16,644 nucleotides of DNA, from the UHGV virus genome UHGV-0060989, one strand, 5' to 3'. Shown in pieces: positions 973-16,644 of the stretch. A model generated the notes under the pieces. It did not search any database. It was not told the DNA's origin and saw nothing but the letters and a program-made list of their open reading frames with translations. The position numbers and the translations under genes are program-made. The DNA is from a virus. Position 1 is the first letter of the stretch, and every line of letters starts with the position of its first letter.

Positions 973-1468
973 GGCTTTTAACAGCAACATGCTTAACTTT
1001 CTCAACACGTTTACGCATTTTGAAAGCATTTTGCATTGGCTGGTATAAAACAAATAATGACGCTTTCAGGATGTCGTCAATTTCGTTTCTACAGGTTGCC
1101 AGTGAAGGTTTTCTCCATCCCTCGCCACCACGTCCACACATCTTGCGTGGCTTTGCAGTCGCGTGATAGTAGGATGCAATTGCTCGCTTAGATGAACCAT
1201 GAGCGTAGTAGCTGAGGAGGATGCCAAAGGCTTTTTTGTCAATGTACATGACGGAATCGACGACCTGAGAAATCAACATTCCATCATCATCATTGCACAT
1301 TGGCCTTGTCATAACTCTTCCCGGCTCTACGCTCTCCATGAACTTCGCTATTACGCTGCTCATGCGCTTTTCCAGACGACCTGAATAAACCCATGCGCCC
1401 CACAGTTCAAGCCAGCCATTCAGCCACTCGTGCTGCTCTTTGGTGAGGTTTAGTTCTCTTATGCCCAT
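950..1468 (-). CDS. Q: Late-gene antiterminator Q (non-lambda allele, Phage_antitermQ family)
   Basis: 172 aa ORF containing the ELWGAW motif and cysteine/histidine-rich segments. It sits between ninI and the lysis genes, has a GGGAGAAGG ribosome-binding site, and is not the lambda Q sequence. Confidence 0.8.
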
Positions 1469-6981: not shown

Positions 6982-7278
6982 TCAGAATTGCATATCAGTT
7001 TGCTTAAAATCCTCGGTGGCGGCCGGGGATTTTTTCTTTGTGATTTCATCAAGCGCATACTTAAAAGCCCTGCTAATCGGACTGATGTCTGATGCCATTC
7101 CGAAAGCACACAAGACCGAAGCAATAAATCTCCAGTCCGTTCTGCTTATCTTCGATTCATGACAGCCAATCATCTTTGCCAGACCGCGCTGGGTAAGCGT
7201 TGACAGGTTGATGAGTAAATCAGTTTCAGCGCGATCAATTTCTCGCTGTGTTGGCTTGCTGTAGCTTGCTTGTGCCAT
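6982..7278 (-). CDS. cII: CII-like transcriptional activator (P22 C1 / lambda CII family)
   Basis: 98 aa; the segment ...[19 protein letters not shown]...[20 protein letters not shown] parallels the lambda CII C-terminal region (KKRPAATERSEQIQMEF). It lies immediately downstream of cro. Confidence 0.85.
7256..7269 (+). promoter_or_regulatory. Candidate CII-binding box of pRE (TTGC-N6-TTGC) inside the cII 5' end, oriented toward the repressor gene
   Basis: TTGCtgtagcTTGC on the plus strand, at the position of lambda pRE. Confidence 0.4.
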
Positions 7279-7659: not shown

Positions 7660-8310
7660 ATGAATACACAACTGATGGGTGAGCGTATTCGCGCTCGCAG
7701 AAAAGAACTCAAGATTAGGCAGGCTGCCCTTGGCAAGATGGTTGGCGTGTCTAATGTTGCTATTTCCCAATGGGAGCGATCTGAAACTGAGCCCAATGGC
7801 GAAAACCTATTGGCCTTAGCCAAGGCTTTGCAGTGCTCCCCTGATTACCTGTTGAAAGGAGAGGATAGTCTTTCAAACATTGCCTATCACAGCAGGCATG
7901 ATCCAAGAGGTTCGTATCCTCTAATTAGTTGGGTAAGCGCAGGATGTTGGATGGAAGCTGTAGAGCCATATCATAGGCGTGCAATAGATAACTGGTACGA
8001 CACAACGGTAGATTGTTCTGAAGACTCTTTTTGGCTCGACGTTAAAGGCGATTCAATGACTGCCCCGGCAGGACTGAGTATTCCTGAGGGGATGATTATT
8101 CTCGTCGACCCAGAAGTCGAACCACGTAATGGAAAGCTGGTAGTCGCCAAACTTGAAGGAGAAAACGAGGCGACATTCAAAAAGTTAGTTATTGATGCCG
8201 GTAGAAAATTCCTGAAACCACTCAATCCACAATACCCAATGATTGAAATCAATGGGAACTGTAAAATCATTGGCGTTGTCGTTGATGCCAAGCTAGCAAA
8301 CCTTCCTTAA
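7660..8310 (+). CDS. c2: C2 repressor (P22-type CI-family repressor with LexA-like autocleavage domain)
   Basis: 216 aa MNTQLMGERIRARRKELKIRQAALGKMVGVSNVAISQWERSETEPNGENLLALAKALQCSPDYLLKG..., closely matching P22 C2. It has an N-terminal HTH and a C-terminal S24 peptidase-like domain. Confidence 0.95.
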   Translation: MNTQLMGERIRARRKELKIRQAALGKMVGVSNVAISQWERSETEPNGENLLALAKALQCSPDYLLKGEDSLSNIAYHSRHDPRGSYPLISWVSAGCWMEAVEPYHRRAIDNWYDTTVDCSEDSFWLDVKGDSMTAPAGLSIPEGMIILVDPEVEPRNGKLVVAKLEGENEATFKKLVIDAGRKFLKPLNPQYPMIEINGNCKIIGVVVDAKLANLP

Positions 8311-8514: not shown

Positions 8515-8624
8515 CCAGAACTTGAGTGGTTTTGGGGATGGCGCGAATTGCAGCTGCAAGACAGCGATCGAGAAGATAAGCACCTCGACGCGTCATGCGC
8601 CAAAGCCACTTAAAGGAGACCATC

Positions 8625-8930
8625 ATGGTAACCATTGTCTGGAAAGAATCCAAAGGTACGGCAAAAAGCCGCTACAAAGCTCGCAGAGCAGAACTTATTG
8701 CCGAGCGACGCAGTAATGAAGCACTGGCGCGAAAAATTGCGCTAAAGCTCTCTGGTTGCGTCAGAGCAGACAAAGCAGCATCACTAGGAAGCCTTCGCTG
8801 CAAGAAGGCAGAAGAAGTCGAGCGTAAACAGAACCGTATTTACTACCGGAAGCCACGGAGTGAAATGGGTGTGACTTGCTCAGGCCGCCAGAAGCAACGC
8901 GGAAAATCAATTCCAGCTTATTACGATTGA
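8625..8930 (+). CDS. N: Antiterminator N (phi21-type arginine-rich motif)
   Basis: From the Met preceded by AAGGAG: MVTIVWKESKGTAKSRYKARRAELIAERR... The ARM GTAKSRYKARRAELIAER matches phi21 N as I recall it, and the C-terminus ...GVTCSGRQKQRGKSIP resembles the lambda N C-terminus. Confidence 0.85.
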   Translation: MVTIVWKESKGTAKSRYKARRAELIAERRSNEALARKIALKLSGCVRADKAASLGSLRCKKAEEVERKQNRIYYRKPRSEMGVTCSGRQKQRGKSIPAYYD

Positions 8931-9130: not shown

Positions 9131-9382
9131 ATGGAGTTTCATGAAAGTGCGATTTGTGATTTTCGCGCTAACGCAAATTCAGTAAAACCACAGCCAATTG
9201 CAGTTCTTTTTAAAACAATGGGTGCGTGGGCTGTTTTATGCTTCGCCTCTGATGACACTGACGCGAGAATGGCAATAGGCCAAGAGATGGAGATGGACCC
9301 GACAAACGATGAATTCATAATTTATGGCGCTCCATCTAATTACTTACTTGATACCTGCAACATTTACAACAAGGCTGCCTGA
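9131..9382 (+). CDS. Hypothetical protein (83 aa), immediate-early position
   Basis: ORF with GAGGTGAGAT upstream of the ATG, same strand and operon as N. No family recognised. Confidence 0.55.
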   Translation: MEFHESAICDFRANANSVKPQPIAVLFKTMGAWAVLCFASDDTDARMAIGQEMEMDPTNDEFIIYGAPSNYLLDTCNIYNKAA

Positions 9383-9421
9383 TGGTGGCCTTTATTTTTG
9401 GCATAAACAACAGAGGCTAAC

Positions 9422-10413: not shown

Positions 10414-10725
10414 ATGATGATTCTGACTCTGAATGATAAGCGTGAAATATCGCAAATAATCGCAAGTTTTACTGATGAAGATTACGAGCGAATCAACAGT
10501 GAAGTTGATCGCCTCTGCAAACGTTGCGACCCAATAAGCGAAATGCTTCGCTCATATAAACCAGATGAACACACTAAGGACGCTATCGACTGGTTGGAAG
10601 ATGATGACTGTAACTATCAGGAAAAAGCCGCTGAATGGTTCTGGGATGCAATAACCGAAAGAGTTAAGGCTGAATATGCCTTCGCAATATTCAAACGCAG
10701 ACACATTTATGGAGAAGCAGCATGA
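10414..10725 (+). CDS. Hypothetical acidic protein (103 aa) at the gam/abc position upstream of recT
   Basis: ORF with an AGGAG ribosome-binding site. Its stop overlaps the recT start. No family recognised. Confidence 0.6.
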   Translation: MMILTLNDKREISQIIASFTDEDYERINSEVDRLCKRCDPISEMLRSYKPDEHTKDAIDWLEDDDCNYQEKAAEWFWDAITERVKAEYAFAIFKRRHIYGEAA

Positions 10726-11633
10726 GCAATATCGTTGAATTCGTTAAACAGCAGGAGCAGTTATTCTGCGGAGCATTGACTGAACAGACGGTGACATGGG
10801 CTAAGGAAAGCCAGTTTGCAATTCAGTATTTCCAGAAAAATGATTACCTTGCTAAAACGGCACTGGCAAATCCAACCAGCGCACAGAACGCCATCATCAA
10901 TGTTGCGGCGATCGGCATCACCTTAAACCCGGCCAGCAAACTTGCTTATCTAGTTCCGCGCGACGGCATGGTTTGCCTTGATATCAGTTATATGGGATTG
11001 CTCCATATTGCAATGGAGTCTGGTGTTATCTCATGGGGTCAGGCAAAACTTGTTCATGCTAACGATACCTATGAGTCAAACGGGCTTGATAAAGCACCAA
11101 CCCATAAATACAACGCCTTCGGTGATCGTGGTGATATCGTTGGCGTTTACTGCACAGTTAAGACGCCAGCAGGTGATTATCTAACGGAAGAGATGAGTCT
11201 GGCTGAAATTGAGGCTGTAAGGAAAACAAGCAAGGCAGCATTCAGCGATAAAGGACCATGGGTAAATCACTGGAATGAGATGGCGCGAAAGACGGTCGTA
11301 AAGCGTGCAAGCAAGTATTGGCCTAAGGCATCACGTCTTGATAGTGCTATTCACGTACTAAACGAAGAAGAAGGTGTGTGGACTGAACCAGTTATGCCGC
11401 ACAAATCAGAGGAAGATATCCGCGAAGATGAACGGAAACGCCAGCAGGAAATAATGGATAAAGCACAACTTCTTTGTGATGAAATGGATCAGGCAGAAAA
11501 CATTGATGATTTGAAGCGATATTTTGCAGAAGCATATCGCCTGACATCTGGAATGAAATTGCAGCAGAACGTACAAGCCATTTACATAGAATGCAAAGCG
11601 AAACTGGAGGTTGCCAGTGAGCAAACTGTATGA
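10722..11633 (+). CDS. recT: RecT-family single-strand annealing recombinase
   Basis: 303 aa; the segment GPWVNHWNEMARKTVVKRASKYWPKA matches the conserved RecT core (compare Rac RecT GPWVTHWEEMAKKTAIRRLFKYLP). Confidence 0.85.
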   Translation: MSNIVEFVKQQEQLFCGALTEQTVTWAKESQFAIQYFQKNDYLAKTALANPTSAQNAIINVAAIGITLNPASKLAYLVPRDGMVCLDISYMGLLHIAMESGVISWGQAKLVHANDTYESNGLDKAPTHKYNAFGDRGDIVGVYCTVKTPAGDYLTEEMSLAEIEAVRKTSKAAFSDKGPWVNHWNEMARKTVVKRASKYWPKASRLDSAIHVLNEEEGVWTEPVMPHKSEEDIREDERKRQQEIMDKAQLLCDEMDQAENIDDLKRYFAEAYRLTSGMKLQQNVQAIYIECKAKLEVASEQTV

Positions 11634-13148: not shown

Positions 13149-13450
13149 CAATCACAAAACAACGGGTAGAAGAAATCATATCCCGCATTGAAATGTATGG
13201 ACATGGTGCAGGATATACCGCTGACGAGGTTTATGACCTAGCTGTACTGGCGCTGAATTTATCAAATATCGCAAACCTGAAGCGATACGAGCTTGATATG
13301 GGAGGTTGTGACTCATGCGGTCAGGATTGTGGCGCTGACATGACTGAAGATTCTGATGGCGATTATGTCCTGTTTGATGACGTGGTTAAGTTGTTTGAGT
13401 TTGATACATTCGAAAGCCCAGCAAGGGAGACAACCAGTGAGCAAGATTGA
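13145..13450 (+). CDS. Hypothetical protein (101 aa) with acidic C-terminus
   Basis: ORF with a GGTGAG ribosome-binding site and start overlapping the preceding stop. Confidence 0.55.
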   Translation: MTITKQRVEEIISRIEMYGHGAGYTADEVYDLAVLALNLSNIANLKRYELDMGGCDSCGQDCGADMTEDSDGDYVLFDDVVKLFEFDTFESPARETTSEQD

Positions 13451-13964
13451 CTATCAGGCACTGCGTGAGGCGGCAGAAAAAGCAACGTGTGGCGTGTGGT
13501 CGCTCGAATATGGAGAGGAGAGATTTGATGCTGGTGATGCGCTAATTCATCGTGAAGTTGTTGGATATCTTCCCATTTGCAGAATTGAAGGAGCGCATCC
13601 TGAAAGCGGTTTCGATGAAGATTTCCAAATGGAACAGCAGGCCAATGCTGAATTCATCGCCGCAGCCAATCCGGCTACCGTGCTGGCACTACTGGATGAA
13701 CGGGAAAGAAACCAGCAATACATCAAACGCCGCGACCAGGAGAACGAGGATATTGCGCTAACGGTAGGGAAGCTGCGTGTTGAGCTGGAAGCCGCAGAGA
13801 AGCGCATTGCAGAACTGGAAGCACGGGAAATATCGCTCCCAGAACGTAGCAGCATGCTTCATCGAACAGATTTTCACGATGATTACCAAACGGTAATGGC
13901 ATACAAAGTTTCTGAAGTCATCGATGCAATCCGCGCTACTGGCATTCGCATCAAAGGAGAGTGA
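13437..13964 (+). CDS. Ead/Ea22-like protein (about 175 aa), probable GTG start
   Basis: Contains ANAEFIAAANPATVLALLDERE and a coiled-coil C-terminal region (LRVELEAAEKRIAELEA). GGGAGA lies upstream of the GTG. The longer track ORF begins in the previous gene. Confidence 0.55.
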   Translation: MSKIDYQALREAAEKATCGVWSLEYGEERFDAGDALIHREVVGYLPICRIEGAHPESGFDEDFQMEQQANAEFIAAANPATVLALLDERERNQQYIKRRDQENEDIALTVGKLRVELEAAEKRIAELEAREISLPERSSMLHRTDFHDDYQTVMAYKVSEVIDAIRATGIRIKGE

Positions 13965-13965
13965 G

Positions 13966-14157
13966 ATGAACGGACAAATATCAATTGTTCGACCGGGAGC
14001 ATGTGACGATTGCGAGATACGAATGATTATTCGTCTGGCGAGGGGGAAAACAATAACTGCTCTCATTACTCCAGAAAATATCGCATTAGCATTAACAGGA
14101 AAGTCAGACCTGCCAGTAGAGCTAAAGCTGCGAAATGTTGAGATTAAGGTGAAATAG
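13966..14157 (+). CDS. Hypothetical small protein (63 aa)
   Basis: MNGQISIVRPGACDDCEIRMIIRLARGKTITALITPENIALALTGKSDLPVELKLRNVEIKVK with an AAAGGAG site upstream. Confidence 0.45.
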   Translation: MNGQISIVRPGACDDCEIRMIIRLARGKTITALITPENIALALTGKSDLPVELKLRNVEIKVK

Positions 14158-14159
14158 CT

Positions 14160-15020
14160 ATGACCACTATTACCAAAGAGCGACTGCTGACAATCAAGCA
14201 GTGGCGCGAAACATACGGACCTGGTAGCAACGTTGTACTGCCAGCAGAAGAAGCGGAAGAACTGGCACGAATTGCTCTGGCATCGCTGGAAGCAGAACCA
14301 GTTGCTTATATTTTCAAACATCCGGCCGGGAAATTATTCTGGGCTTTAACGGATGAAAGCAATAAAGAGCAAGCTGACGTTATTCCTGTTTATGCTGCCG
14401 CGCCTGCGTCGGTTGTGCCGGATAATGCATCAGAGCCTCTTGCTTATGCTTACAAAGAGCTTACGCCTGAGATTATGCGCAACCATTTAGCTGTATTCGA
14501 GCGATATGGAATAGCCCCAAACGATAGCTCTACCACAATTCAGGCACTGCGAATCGCGCTGGATGGCATAGAGCGGAGCGACGCGATGCTTCATGGTGCC
14601 GAACCTGTAAGCCAAACTTACAAGTTGCCAGTTAATACACCTTGCAAAGATGCGCCAGCCCATATCTGGCTGCAAACGGCTGGAGTATGGCCAGAAGATG
14701 GCGAGTTAAGCGAATTAACGTGGTGCAGCCACAATCAGCACCATGATGACACGCTATATGTTCGAGCTGACTTGGTAAATGGCAACTCTCCGGTAACTCC
14801 GGATGGTTGGATAAGCTGTAGTGAGCGAATGCCTGAAATTAGACAAACAGTTATTGGATGGAATGGATATGCAGTTAGACAATGCGTATATACAAGGAAT
14901 GAATATGCCAAGACACAGAAAGGCAGAGAGCCAAGGTTTGAAACCTTAACTGGTATATGGCATGGAGTAACCCACTGGATGCCGCTACCAGAACCGCCGC
15001 AGGAGGTTAACCATGGCTAA
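14160..15020 (+). CDS. Hypothetical protein with C-terminal DUF551-like domain (286 aa)
   Basis: The C-terminal segment DGWISCSERMPE...GWNGYAVRQCVY...THWMPLPEPP is typical of the DUF551 phage domain. An AAGGTG ribosome-binding site lies upstream. Confidence 0.65.
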   Translation: MTTITKERLLTIKQWRETYGPGSNVVLPAEEAEELARIALASLEAEPVAYIFKHPAGKLFWALTDESNKEQADVIPVYAAAPASVVPDNASEPLAYAYKELTPEIMRNHLAVFERYGIAPNDSSTTIQALRIALDGIERSDAMLHGAEPVSQTYKLPVNTPCKDAPAHIWLQTAGVWPEDGELSELTWCSHNQHHDDTLYVRADLVNGNSPVTPDGWISCSERMPEIRQTVIGWNGYAVRQCVYTRNEYAKTQKGREPRFETLTGIWHGVTHWMPLPEPPQEVNHG

Positions 15021-15050
15021 CCTGCAACTTGACGTCAAAGGTGAATAACA

Positions 15051-15078
15051 ATCCTCGCATTCGCGGGGATTTATTTTA
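15051..15078 (+). terminator. Intrinsic terminator after the DUF551 gene
   Basis: ATCCTCGC-attc-GCGGGGAT (8 bp stem, one G-U pair) followed by TTATTTTAT. Confidence 0.5.
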
Positions 15079-15120
15079 TCTGAACTCGCTACGGCGGGTT
15101 TTGTTTTATGGAGATGATAA

Positions 15121-15288
15121 ATGCACTTCCGAGTCACAGGTGAATGGAATGGAGAGCCATTCAACAGGGTTATCGAAGCAGAGAACATCAACGACTGCTA
15201 TAACCACTGGATGATATGGGCGCAGATAGCGCATGCAGACGTAACCAATATTCGAATTGAAGAACTGAAAGAACACCAAGCCGCCTGA
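15121..15288 (+). CDS. Hypothetical small protein (55 aa) flanked by terminators
   Basis: MHFRVTGEWNGEPFNRVIEAENINDCYNHWMIWAQIAHADVTNIRIEELKEHQAA. GGAG lies 7 nt upstream. Not in the ORF track. Confidence 0.45.
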   Translation: MHFRVTGEWNGEPFNRVIEAENINDCYNHWMIWAQIAHADVTNIRIEELKEHQAA

Positions 15289-15300
15289 TGGCGGTTTTTT
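15279..15300 (+). terminator. Strong intrinsic terminator immediately upstream of xis
   Basis: AGCCGCC-tgat-GGCGGTT followed by TTTTTT. The stop codon of the 55 aa ORF lies in the loop. Confidence 0.65.
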
Positions 15301-15301
15301 C

Positions 15302-15330
15302 TTGCGTGTAATTGCGGAGACTTTGCGATG
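15302..15330 (+). promoter_or_regulatory. pI-like CII-dependent promoter (TTGC-N6-TTGC) at the xis start
   Basis: TTGCgtgtaaTTGC at 15302..15315, as at lambda pI. Confidence 0.5.
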
Positions 15331-15546
15331 TACTTGACACTTCAGGAGTGGAACGCTCGCCAACGACGCCCAAGAAGCCTTGAAACAGTTCGTCGATGGG
15401 TACGCGAGTGCAGGATATTCCCTCCTCCGGTTAAGGATGGAAGAGAGTATCTGTTCCACGAATCAGCGGTAAAGGTTGACTTAAATCGACCAGTAACAGG
15501 TAGCCTTTTGAAGAGGATCAGAAATGGGAAGAAGGCGAAGTCATGA
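15328..15546 (+). CDS. xis: Excisionase Xis (lambda-type)
   Basis: 72 aa MYLTLQEWNARQRRPRSLETVRRWVRECRIFPPPVKDGREYLFHESAVKVDLNRPVTGSLLKRIRNGKKAKS matches lambda Xis. Its 3' end overlaps the int start. Confidence 0.95.
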   Translation: MYLTLQEWNARQRRPRSLETVRRWVRECRIFPPPVKDGREYLFHESAVKVDLNRPVTGSLLKRIRNGKKAKS

Positions 15547-16594
15547 GCGCCGGGATTTACCCCCTAACCTTTATATAAGAAACAATGGATATTACTGCTA
15601 CAGGGACCCAAGGACGGGTAAAGAGTTTGGATTAGGCCGAGACAGGCGAATCGCAATCACTGAAGCCATACAGGCCAACATTGAGTTATTTTCAGGACAC
15701 AAACACAAGCCTCTGACAGCGAGAATCAACAGTGATAATTCCGTTACGTTACATTCATGGCTTGATCGCTACGAAAAAATCCTGGCCAGCAGAGGAATCA
15801 AGCAGAAGACACTCATAAATTACATGAGCAAAATTAAAGCAATAAGGAGGGGTCTGCCTGATGCTCCACTTGAAGACATCACCACAAAAGAAATTGCGGC
15901 AATGCTCAATGGATACATAGACGAGGGCAAGGCGGCGTCAGCCAAGTTAATCAGATCAACACTGAGCGATGCATTCCGAGAGGCAATAGCTGAAGGCCAT
16001 ATAACAACAAACCCTGTCGCTGCCACTCGCGCAGCAAAATCAGAGGTAAGGAGATCAAGACTTACGGCTGACGAATACCTGAAAATTTATCAAGCAGCAG
16101 AATCATCACCATGTTGGCTCAGACTTGCAATGGAACTGGCTGTTGTTACCGGGCAACGAGTTGGTGATTTATGCGAAATGAAGTGGTCTGATATCGTAGA
16201 TGGATATCTTTATGTCGAGCAAAGCAAAACAGGCGTAAAAATTGCCATCCCAACAGCATTGCATGTTGATGCTCTCGGAATATCAATGAAGGAAACACTT
16301 GATAAATGCAAAGAGATTCTTGGCGGAGAAACCATAATTGCATCTACTCGTCGCGAACCGCTTTCATCCGGCACAGTATCAAGGTATTTTATGCGCGCAC
16401 GAAAAGCATCAGGTCTTTCCTTCGAAGGGGATCCGCCTACCTTTCACGAGTTGCGCAGTTTGTCTGCAAGACTCTATGAGAAGCAGATAAGCGATAAGTT
16501 TGCTCAACATCTTCTCGGGCATAAGTCGGACACCATGGCATCACAGTATCGTGATGACAGAGGCAGGGAGTGGGACAAAATTGAAATCAAATAA
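15524..16594 (+). CDS. int: Integrase Int (lambda-type tyrosine recombinase)
   Basis: 356 aa MGRRRSHERRDLPPNLYIRNNGYYCYRDPRTGKEFGLGRDRRIAITEAIQANIELFSGHKHKPL... matches lambda Int, including the catalytic C-terminal domain (HELRSLSARLY...LLGHKSDTMASQY). Confidence 0.97.
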   Translation: MGRRRSHERRDLPPNLYIRNNGYYCYRDPRTGKEFGLGRDRRIAITEAIQANIELFSGHKHKPLTARINSDNSVTLHSWLDRYEKILASRGIKQKTLINYMSKIKAIRRGLPDAPLEDITTKEIAAMLNGYIDEGKAASAKLIRSTLSDAFREAIAEGHITTNPVAATRAAKSEVRRSRLTADEYLKIYQAAESSPCWLRLAMELAVVTGQRVGDLCEMKWSDIVDGYLYVEQSKTGVKIAIPTALHVDALGISMKETLDKCKEILGGETIIASTRREPLSSGTVSRYFMRARKASGLSFEGDPPTFHELRSLSARLYEKQISDKFAQHLLGHKSDTMASQYRDDRGREWDKIEIK

Positions 16595-16644
16595 TGATTT
16601 TATTTTGACTGATAGTGACCTGTTCGTTGCAACAAATTGATAAG
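16595..16644. other. Distal part of the attP P' arm (Int arm-type sites and IHF H' site); core lies beyond the window end
   Basis: The reverse complement CTTATCAATTTGTTGCAACGAACAGGTCACTATCAGTCAAAATAAAATCA matches the lambda attP P' arm as I recall it. It carries TATCAATTTGTTG (IHF-like) and CAGGTCACTAT / CAGTCAAAAT (arm-type Int sites). Confidence 0.75.

Follow-up and report, generated by a model that had tools for sequence, protein, structure and literature searches.

In phage lambda, expression of xis and int from pL requires N, and int is also expressed from pI. Directly before pI and xis lies orf55, the ORF that closes the exo-xis region; PMC3824215 credits the name to Sergueev et al. 2002. 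According to a citation in PMC9239242, orf55 is one of four genes implicated in blocking the initiation of host replication. Its product has been proposed to be a Gp2-like modulator of RNA polymerase, and a docking model has been presented (Donaldson 2021, PMC8614690). The literature on the exo-xis region, this paper among it, assumes that the region is transcribed from pL. In the lambda record, orf55 (29118-29285, lambdap35 / NP_597778.1) is annotated as "Predicted by GeneMark", and three hairpins at this locus have been predicted by ARNold and named t3, t4, and t5 (Bloch 2014, PMC4195576, Table 4).

Other lambdoid phages carry annotations that bear on the same hairpins. The HK022 record X51962.1 places a misc_feature 'tL4 terminator' on bases homologous to the first hairpin and its T-run, and in HK140 the third hairpin is annotated as a 'rho-independent terminator' behind a "lambdap35-like" gene. 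P22-pbi (AF527608.1) assigns the sequence of the third hairpin to the other strand, where the annotation names it t'I and makes it the 3' end of the aI RNA, whose C1-activated promoter PaI lies inside eaC. A further comparison is offered by the morons of HK97 and HK022 (Juhala 2000; Cumby 2012, PMC3594210). Morons are defined by their own promoter and terminator, by expression from the repressed prophage, by a usually deviant GC content, and by being an obvious addition (Cumby 2012).

The DNA analyzed here, called the window throughout, is the 16,644-nt virus genome UHGV-0060989. No phage record covers more than 55% of it. The window has the sequence of a mosaic, lambda-like phage or prophage, with the plus strand running as the leftward pL transcript (Table 1), and the cI gene, the N-like gene, RecT, and the upstream terminator-like sites all lie on the same strand as orf55. 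Homology to lambda starts at window position 15045, just before hairpin 1, and DNA identity from there on is 96.5%. Lambda and the window thus share the same gene in the same position directly before pI and xis, together with the same three hairpins (PMC4195576; PMC8614690), with hairpin 1 corresponding to t3, hairpin 2 to t4, and hairpin 3 to t5. They differ in the upstream gene, which is ea8.5 in lambda and encodes a DUF551 protein in the window. The orf55 cassette and its terminator hairpins are therefore already known, as lambda orf55, as t3, t4, and t5, and as tL4.

The initial annotation had described a 55-aa ORF with its own Shine-Dalgarno site, bracketed by two intrinsic terminators directly before the pI/xis junction and without a convincing sigma-70 promoter. 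Both the ORF and its GGAG are present, flanking hairpins are indeed found, the last T-run ends 2 nt from the cII box, and strict and laxer promoter scans agree that no such promoter is seen; the number of hairpins, however, is three rather than two. The comparison with lambda at the ea8.5/xis boundary that was then proposed recovers the same cassette, whose identity with orf55, t3-t5, and tL4 had been missed.

Table 1. Features of the orf55 locus and its surroundings (window positions; stem-loop extents in parentheses)
Feature	Position	Strand	Details
cI-type repressor	7660-8310	+	gene order of the window
N-like gene	8595-8930	+	weak Pfam N_peptide match
RecT	10722-11633	+	
Ea22-like gene	13356-13964	+	
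DUF551 gene	14160-15020	+	upstream neighbor of the cassette
11-codon frame MANLQLDVKGE*	15013..15048	+	overlaps the DUF551 stop; own stop directly before hairpin 1
Hairpin 1 and T-rich tail	15050..15081 (15050-15071)	+	9 pairs, tail TATTTTATCT; -13.1 kcal/mol, z -5.8
Hairpin 2 and T-run	15082..15109 (15082-15101)	+	8 pairs, tail TGTTTTATGG; -11.0 kcal/mol, z -3.4
Shine-Dalgarno GGAG	15110..15113	+	7 nt 5' of the orf55 ATG
orf55 (lambda lambdap35 / NP_597778; PHROG 676)	15121..15288	+	ATG start, 55 aa
Hairpin 3 and T6	15278..15300 (15278-15297)	+	8 pairs, tail TTTCTTGCGT; -13.0 kcal/mol, z -2.6
cII-binding box of pI, TTGC-N6-TTGC	15302..15315	+	right-hand boundary of the cassette, outside it
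xis	15328..15546	+	ATG at 15328
int	15524..16594	+	followed by the P arm of attP

By chance alone, ORFs this short turn up often (a 3.1-kb stretch here is overlapped by 45 ORFs of 25 aa or more), so that 55 codons alone are no evidence of a gene, and the evidence for coding has to come from relatives. These sequence comparisons show that orf55 truly codes for a protein and that purifying selection acts on it. The match to PHROG 676 spans residues 1-55 of 55 (E 1.7e-39). Five of the six nucleotide differences from lambda are synonymous (dN/dS 0.04), and the one amino-acid difference is N28D. The ortholog in a Klebsiella prophage is 73% identical in DNA and 75% in protein, with a dN/dS of 0.10; the 55-codon length is retained at this distance, and the differences fall 12/4/28 on the three codon positions (pS 0.69, pN 0.17, with synonymous sites saturated). 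The two other reading frames show no such bias in this comparison and contain stops. Among 41 distinct viral-contig sequences, a sample picked by protein similarity, variable sites per codon position number 5/3/16. To complement that sample, a second one was anchored on DNA outside the ORF, at hairpin 2, and in it 78 of 81 copies hold an intact 55-codon ORF. The GGAG is conserved across nearly all loci compared.

The HK022 copy has a 1-nt deletion just after the start codon (L208, AF069308.1, 467-646; L001, 320-345). Its interpretation as a pseudogene was rejected, as the complete-genome record shows the frame to be rescued by an in-frame ATG 13 nt upstream, in the usual ribosome-binding region, giving MEMINAFRVTGEW… and preserving residues 3-55. 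The note on this copy in the HK022 genome reads "undocumented homolog present in lambda".

The cassette occurs in 375-387 phage records and, at a coverage of at least 80%, in 2159 of 5426 complete E. coli genomes (∼40%). The Orf55 family is small and confined to prophages of Enterobacteriaceae, with 97 clusters at 90% identity, and 54 representatives were found among 1.84 billion proteins, with a few distant relatives of 51-57 aa.

Orf55 is an acidic protein for which no family was found in Pfam or NCBIfam. AlphaFold gives a confident beta-beta-alpha-beta model (pLDDT 89.4). In structure comparisons this model matched the epsilon subunit of B. subtilis RNA polymerase (4.9), T7 Gp2 (4.6 and 4.5, ranks 25 and 34), phage p56 (4.6), AcrIE2 (4.6), and T4 Dmd (4.2), with Gp2 ranking behind PurS, eL20, and RNA polymerase epsilon. 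Foldseek against viral models returned no match below an E of 0.01 and a few Gp2-like inhibitors at E ∼0.1. A sequence-profile search of the PDB found no Gp2 at E values up to 10, only noise, with copper nitrite reductases at 0.27. T7 Gp2 (PDB 2LMC, 2WNM, 4LLG) has no sequence relationship to Orf55, and one of its two key arginines is replaced in Orf55, by N43 (PMC8614690). The Gp2-like proposal thus appears compatible with the modeled fold but not specific to it. Since several unrelated phage inhibitors share the same small fold, we offer only the low-confidence guess that Orf55 binds some host protein. Judging from its size, charge, and predicted fold, it would most likely be a binder or inhibitor of a host protein that acts early in lytic growth.

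The three sites in Table 1 are canonical intrinsic-terminator-like hairpins. At each of them, a GC-rich stem-loop is followed directly by a U-tract on the plus strand; their z-scores were computed against shuffled sequences. Folding of the 271-nt context lets the three hairpins form independently. On both strands of the whole 16.6-kb window there are 28 terminator-like sites, compared with 16.1 ± 4.3 in shuffles, and whereas ∼0.1 such sites are expected per 250 nt of one strand, three are seen here. Hairpin 3 carries the TGA stop of orf55 inside its loop, and its T6 at 15295-15300 stops 2 nt before the TTGC-N6-TTGC box. From their anatomy and position, hairpin 1 is the putative terminator of whichever gene precedes it and would mark the 3' end of an upstream gene module, hairpin 2 with its T-run and GGAG appears to be a portable intergenic linker, and hairpin 3 is the canonical predicted intrinsic terminator of orf55, forming its 3' end. 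The 11-codon frame whose stop directly precedes hairpin 1 probably represents what is left of the 3' end of a gene that formerly stood there.

Variation among relatives bears on these structures to different degrees. At the site of hairpin 1, other loci have different hairpins, some of the changes preserving pairing, and a G/A polymorphism in hairpin 2 also preserves pairing (U.G to U-A). Hairpin 3 allows no covariation score, being nearly invariant and also encoding QAA-stop. In the Klebsiella ortholog, the stop still lies in the loop of a hairpin, GCCGCC…GGCGG+T5. In L085, a relative of the Klebsiella type, the downstream hairpin is degenerate, and the terminator is thus not indispensable. 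Literature searches on tL4, tL3, and tL2 returned nothing relevant and no experimental paper on tL4, and searches for work that maps the lambda pL operon by 3' ends or RNA-seq likewise found nothing relevant. The Hfq-bound prophage sRNAs described by Tree 2014 map to PR' and not to the orf55 locus.

Similar elements occur elsewhere in the window. Terminator-like sites at 9371, 9970, and 10008 lie between N and the recombination genes, the latter two in tandem. The terminator-like hairpin at 9371-9392 (+), AAGGCTGCCTGATGGTGGCCTT, ends an 83-aa ORF (9131-9382) with the stop TGA in the loop, and its core closely resembles that of hairpin 3 (GCCGCCTGATGGCGG). By this resemblance, ORF and hairpin together may represent a related "gene plus terminator" module.

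To the right of the cassette, the cII box of pI is identical to that of lambda, as is the sequence on into xis; the records of mEp235 and HK630 label the same box as a cII site. The motif TTGC-N6-TTGC is found six times in the window, at 1143-1156 (+), 7256-7269 (+), 10452-10465 (-), 10998-11011 (+), 14359-14372 (-), and 15302-15315 (+), compared with 1.45 expected, and 0 of 200 shuffles reach six. Three of the boxes match known cII-dependent promoters by position and strand, namely a paQ-like promoter, pRE, and pI. The box at 14359-14372, antisense within the DUF551 gene, was rejected as relevant to the cassette: it points away from it and has no -10-like hexamer at the pRE/pI spacing. The window, lambda, and a Klebsiella prophage have the gene order orf55-pI-xis in common. 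In that prophage (L084, GCA_024197975.1, 3170-3250), the orf55 ortholog is followed by a terminator, a TTGC-N6-TTGC box (TTGCGTTAGTTTGC), and an excisionase gene, and its xis (Pfam Exc) and int differ from those of lambda. A cII-type pI promoter may, from this arrangement, be conserved there.

The edges of the cassette are those of a mosaic module. We aligned window positions 14500-15900 to all fetched loci and mapped the ends of homology in 197 distinct alignments. These ends cluster at 15042-15051 (87), 15066-15073 (31), 15113-15123 (∼40), and 15299-15308 (67), and only 5 of ∼300 fall inside the ORF. The breakpoints therefore coincide with the hairpins, the T-runs, and the ribosome-binding site, and the cassette assorts independently. 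On the left, hairpin 1 abuts the stop codons of different upstream genes (…GGTGAATAA, …CAATGAATAA, …ACAAGTAA), and in some loci it is replaced at the same spot by CCCGCCGAGTGCGGG, CCCCGCCCTCGCGGGG, or CCTCG…CGAGG. In many Stx and Salmonella phages, hairpins 1 and 2 stand behind DUF551, EaA, and ASCH genes with no orf55 attached, and in 36 of the 117 DNA-anchored loci the unit of hairpin 2, T-run, and GGAG is followed by one of at least seven other genes.

On the right, at least four different contexts follow hairpin 3. In HK022, orf55 and pI are separated by an additional gene that brings its own hairpin, and where orf55 does not adjoin pI, as in HK022 and mEp235, another hairpin (GCCGCATCAATGCGGC plus T5) stands before the cII box. 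In loci of the HK022/mEp235 type (L001 880-975, L088 940-1020, L083, L148, L202), the DNA before pI resembles, in frame, the N-terminus of an AlpA-type excisionase (…LTLDEACSFLKISRPTI…) and ends in this same hairpin and T5; by its sequence the stretch appears to be a scar that another xis gene left behind on recombination. Hairpin 3 can also persist with a mere stump of orf55. In P22-pbi (L086, 1201-1264), the last 64 nt of orf55 and hairpin 3 are 98% identical to those of E. coli phages, and locus L182 is similar. Many database proteins (P0047-P0093) are chimeras of an unrelated N-terminus and the last 25-38 residues of Orf55 (…WAQIAHADVTNIRIEELKEHQAA), a pattern in the sequences that shows repeated recombination or deletion inside orf55 with its 3' end and terminator kept.

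How is orf55 expressed? No sigma-70-like site at the cassette passes the promoter scan, and in a laxer consensus scan of 14980-15340 the best sites reach 8-9 of 12 matches, none of them positioned to drive orf55. The gap between the T-run of hairpin 2 and the ATG is only ∼11 nt, too short to hold a promoter. One that is weak or not of the sigma-70 class may still have escaped the consensus scans. We consider it likely, and hold this reading with good confidence, that a lambda-like phage has its orf55 cassette here and that orf55 belongs to the N-antiterminated pL operon as a gene without a promoter of its own. Within the exo-xis (b-region-proximal) part of that operon, it would be the last accessory gene. 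By analogy with lambda biology, it would be transcribed only within the pL transcript, by N-modified RNA polymerase, after infection or induction. Such polymerase would read through the intrinsic terminators; both termination and read-through at the three sites are what we infer from their structure. Unmodified polymerase would halt at these hairpins, and already at earlier ones, so that stray transcription of upstream accessory genes would be kept from xis. Int alone would still be made from the cII-activated pI, which would start directly after hairpin 3. The hairpins themselves would be parts of mosaic gene modules, with hairpin 1 closing the upstream gene at its 3' end, hairpin 2 serving as a linker, and hairpin 3 closing orf55 in the same way.

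This reading also refines the earlier statement that the layout makes xis-int expression from pL dependent on N while leaving int to pI. The dependence itself is textbook lambda, and the N-like gene and the cII box fit it, but the need for N is not created by the cassette. The terminator-like sites at 9371, 9970, and 10008 lie downstream of N, and N dependence would thus be imposed before the cassette is reached.

The same layout had been called that of a classic moron, and an autonomous moron, with its own promoter, expressed from the repressed prophage and benefiting the lysogen, is the first alternative to this promoterless pL-operon gene. We regard it as improbable. The single-gene layout bounded by terminators, the breakpoints at the cassette edges, and the variation in presence and neighbors (mEp235 lacks the cassette, and HK022 and HK140 have other adjoining genes) all speak in its favor. 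Indeed, the cassette shares with the HK97 and HK022 morons a single accessory gene, variable presence and neighbors, and a factor-independent terminator of its own (hairpin 3 with T6, -13.0 kcal/mol, on anatomy only). Unlike those morons, however, it has no promoter in the consensus scan and no GC deviation (orf55 47.0%, window 46.0%, neighbors 45.4-48.9%), and it lies in an early antiterminated operon rather than in a late operon. A promoter-like site is absent even at relaxed thresholds, the space before the ATG is short, and a promoter further upstream would meet hairpins 1 and 2 first. Where PMC7067206 lists genes reported as expressed in lambda lysogens, these are cI, rexAB, lom, and bor, and the exo-xis genes are treated in the literature as transcribed from pL. 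As for the cassette being an addition, its neighbors vary and it is absent from mEp235; no locus with the same two flanks joined directly was found. The terminator and the separate assortment of the cassette support the moron reading in part, but the label as such does not fit. Even less probable is that hairpin 3 serves the opposite strand as the 3' end of an antisense RNA, as in P22. The hairpin sequence is identical to P22 t'I, which is annotated as 'terminator; 3'-end of aI RNA' on that strand, but P22 has a truncated orf55 and carries eaC between hairpin and xis, whereas the window has no eaC. Moreover, the minus-strand tail CTTGGTGTTCTTT is a poor U-tract, the minus-strand fold does not improve on shuffles (-10.4 kcal/mol, z -1.3), and no minus-strand TTGC-N6-TTGC or promoter-like site was found downstream in xis/int. 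Least credible of all is that the ORF is a GeneMark artefact in a noncoding spacer or structured RNA. The lambda annotation rests on that prediction only, the protein has no Pfam or NCBIfam family, and ORFs of similar size are common by chance. Yet the dN/dS values of 0.04-0.10 already refute this idea, and the third-position bias of the variable sites, the constant length at 75% amino-acid identity, the distant relatives, and the confident AlphaFold model all stand against it, as does the absence of any Rfam match in a scan of window positions 14000-16644 at E values up to 1.

A more serious contender, though one we hold only tentatively and below the pL-operon reading, is that the hairpins are primarily exchange joints at which homologous recombination swaps small early genes, with termination secondary. 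The concentration of breakpoints at hairpins and T-runs is what such joints would produce, as is the recurrence of the linker of hairpin 2, T-run, and GGAG before at least seven genes, of hairpin 3 before at least four contexts, and of hairpins 1 and 2 alone behind DUF551, EaA, and ASCH genes. Against this, selection against broken genes also leaves breakpoints at gene edges under any recombination mechanism, and the full terminator anatomy, with structure kept where sequence differs, argues for a function at the RNA level. The pattern fits both selection against gene-breaking recombinants and preferential exchange in conserved linkers, and the roles of terminator and joint are not exclusive. 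In the same tentative vein, the linkers may be portable gene-swap joints and hairpin 3 may be selected independently of orf55, as an insulator before pI and xis. This last suggestion draws on the retention of hairpin 3 with a 64-nt stump of orf55 in P22 and some E. coli prophages, and on the different hairpin that stands at this site before pI if orf55 is not adjacent.

The locus carries little weight as a discovery, since the gene, the predicted terminators, and the pI/xis arrangement were already in the literature and databases. What has changed is the standing of orf55 itself: the lambda annotation is only a GeneMark prediction, and comparative support for orf55 as a selected gene is now clear. 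More broadly, the locus provides a clean and quantifiable case of mosaic joints that fall on terminator hairpins, one that might be used to test how small early genes are exchanged among lambdoid phages.
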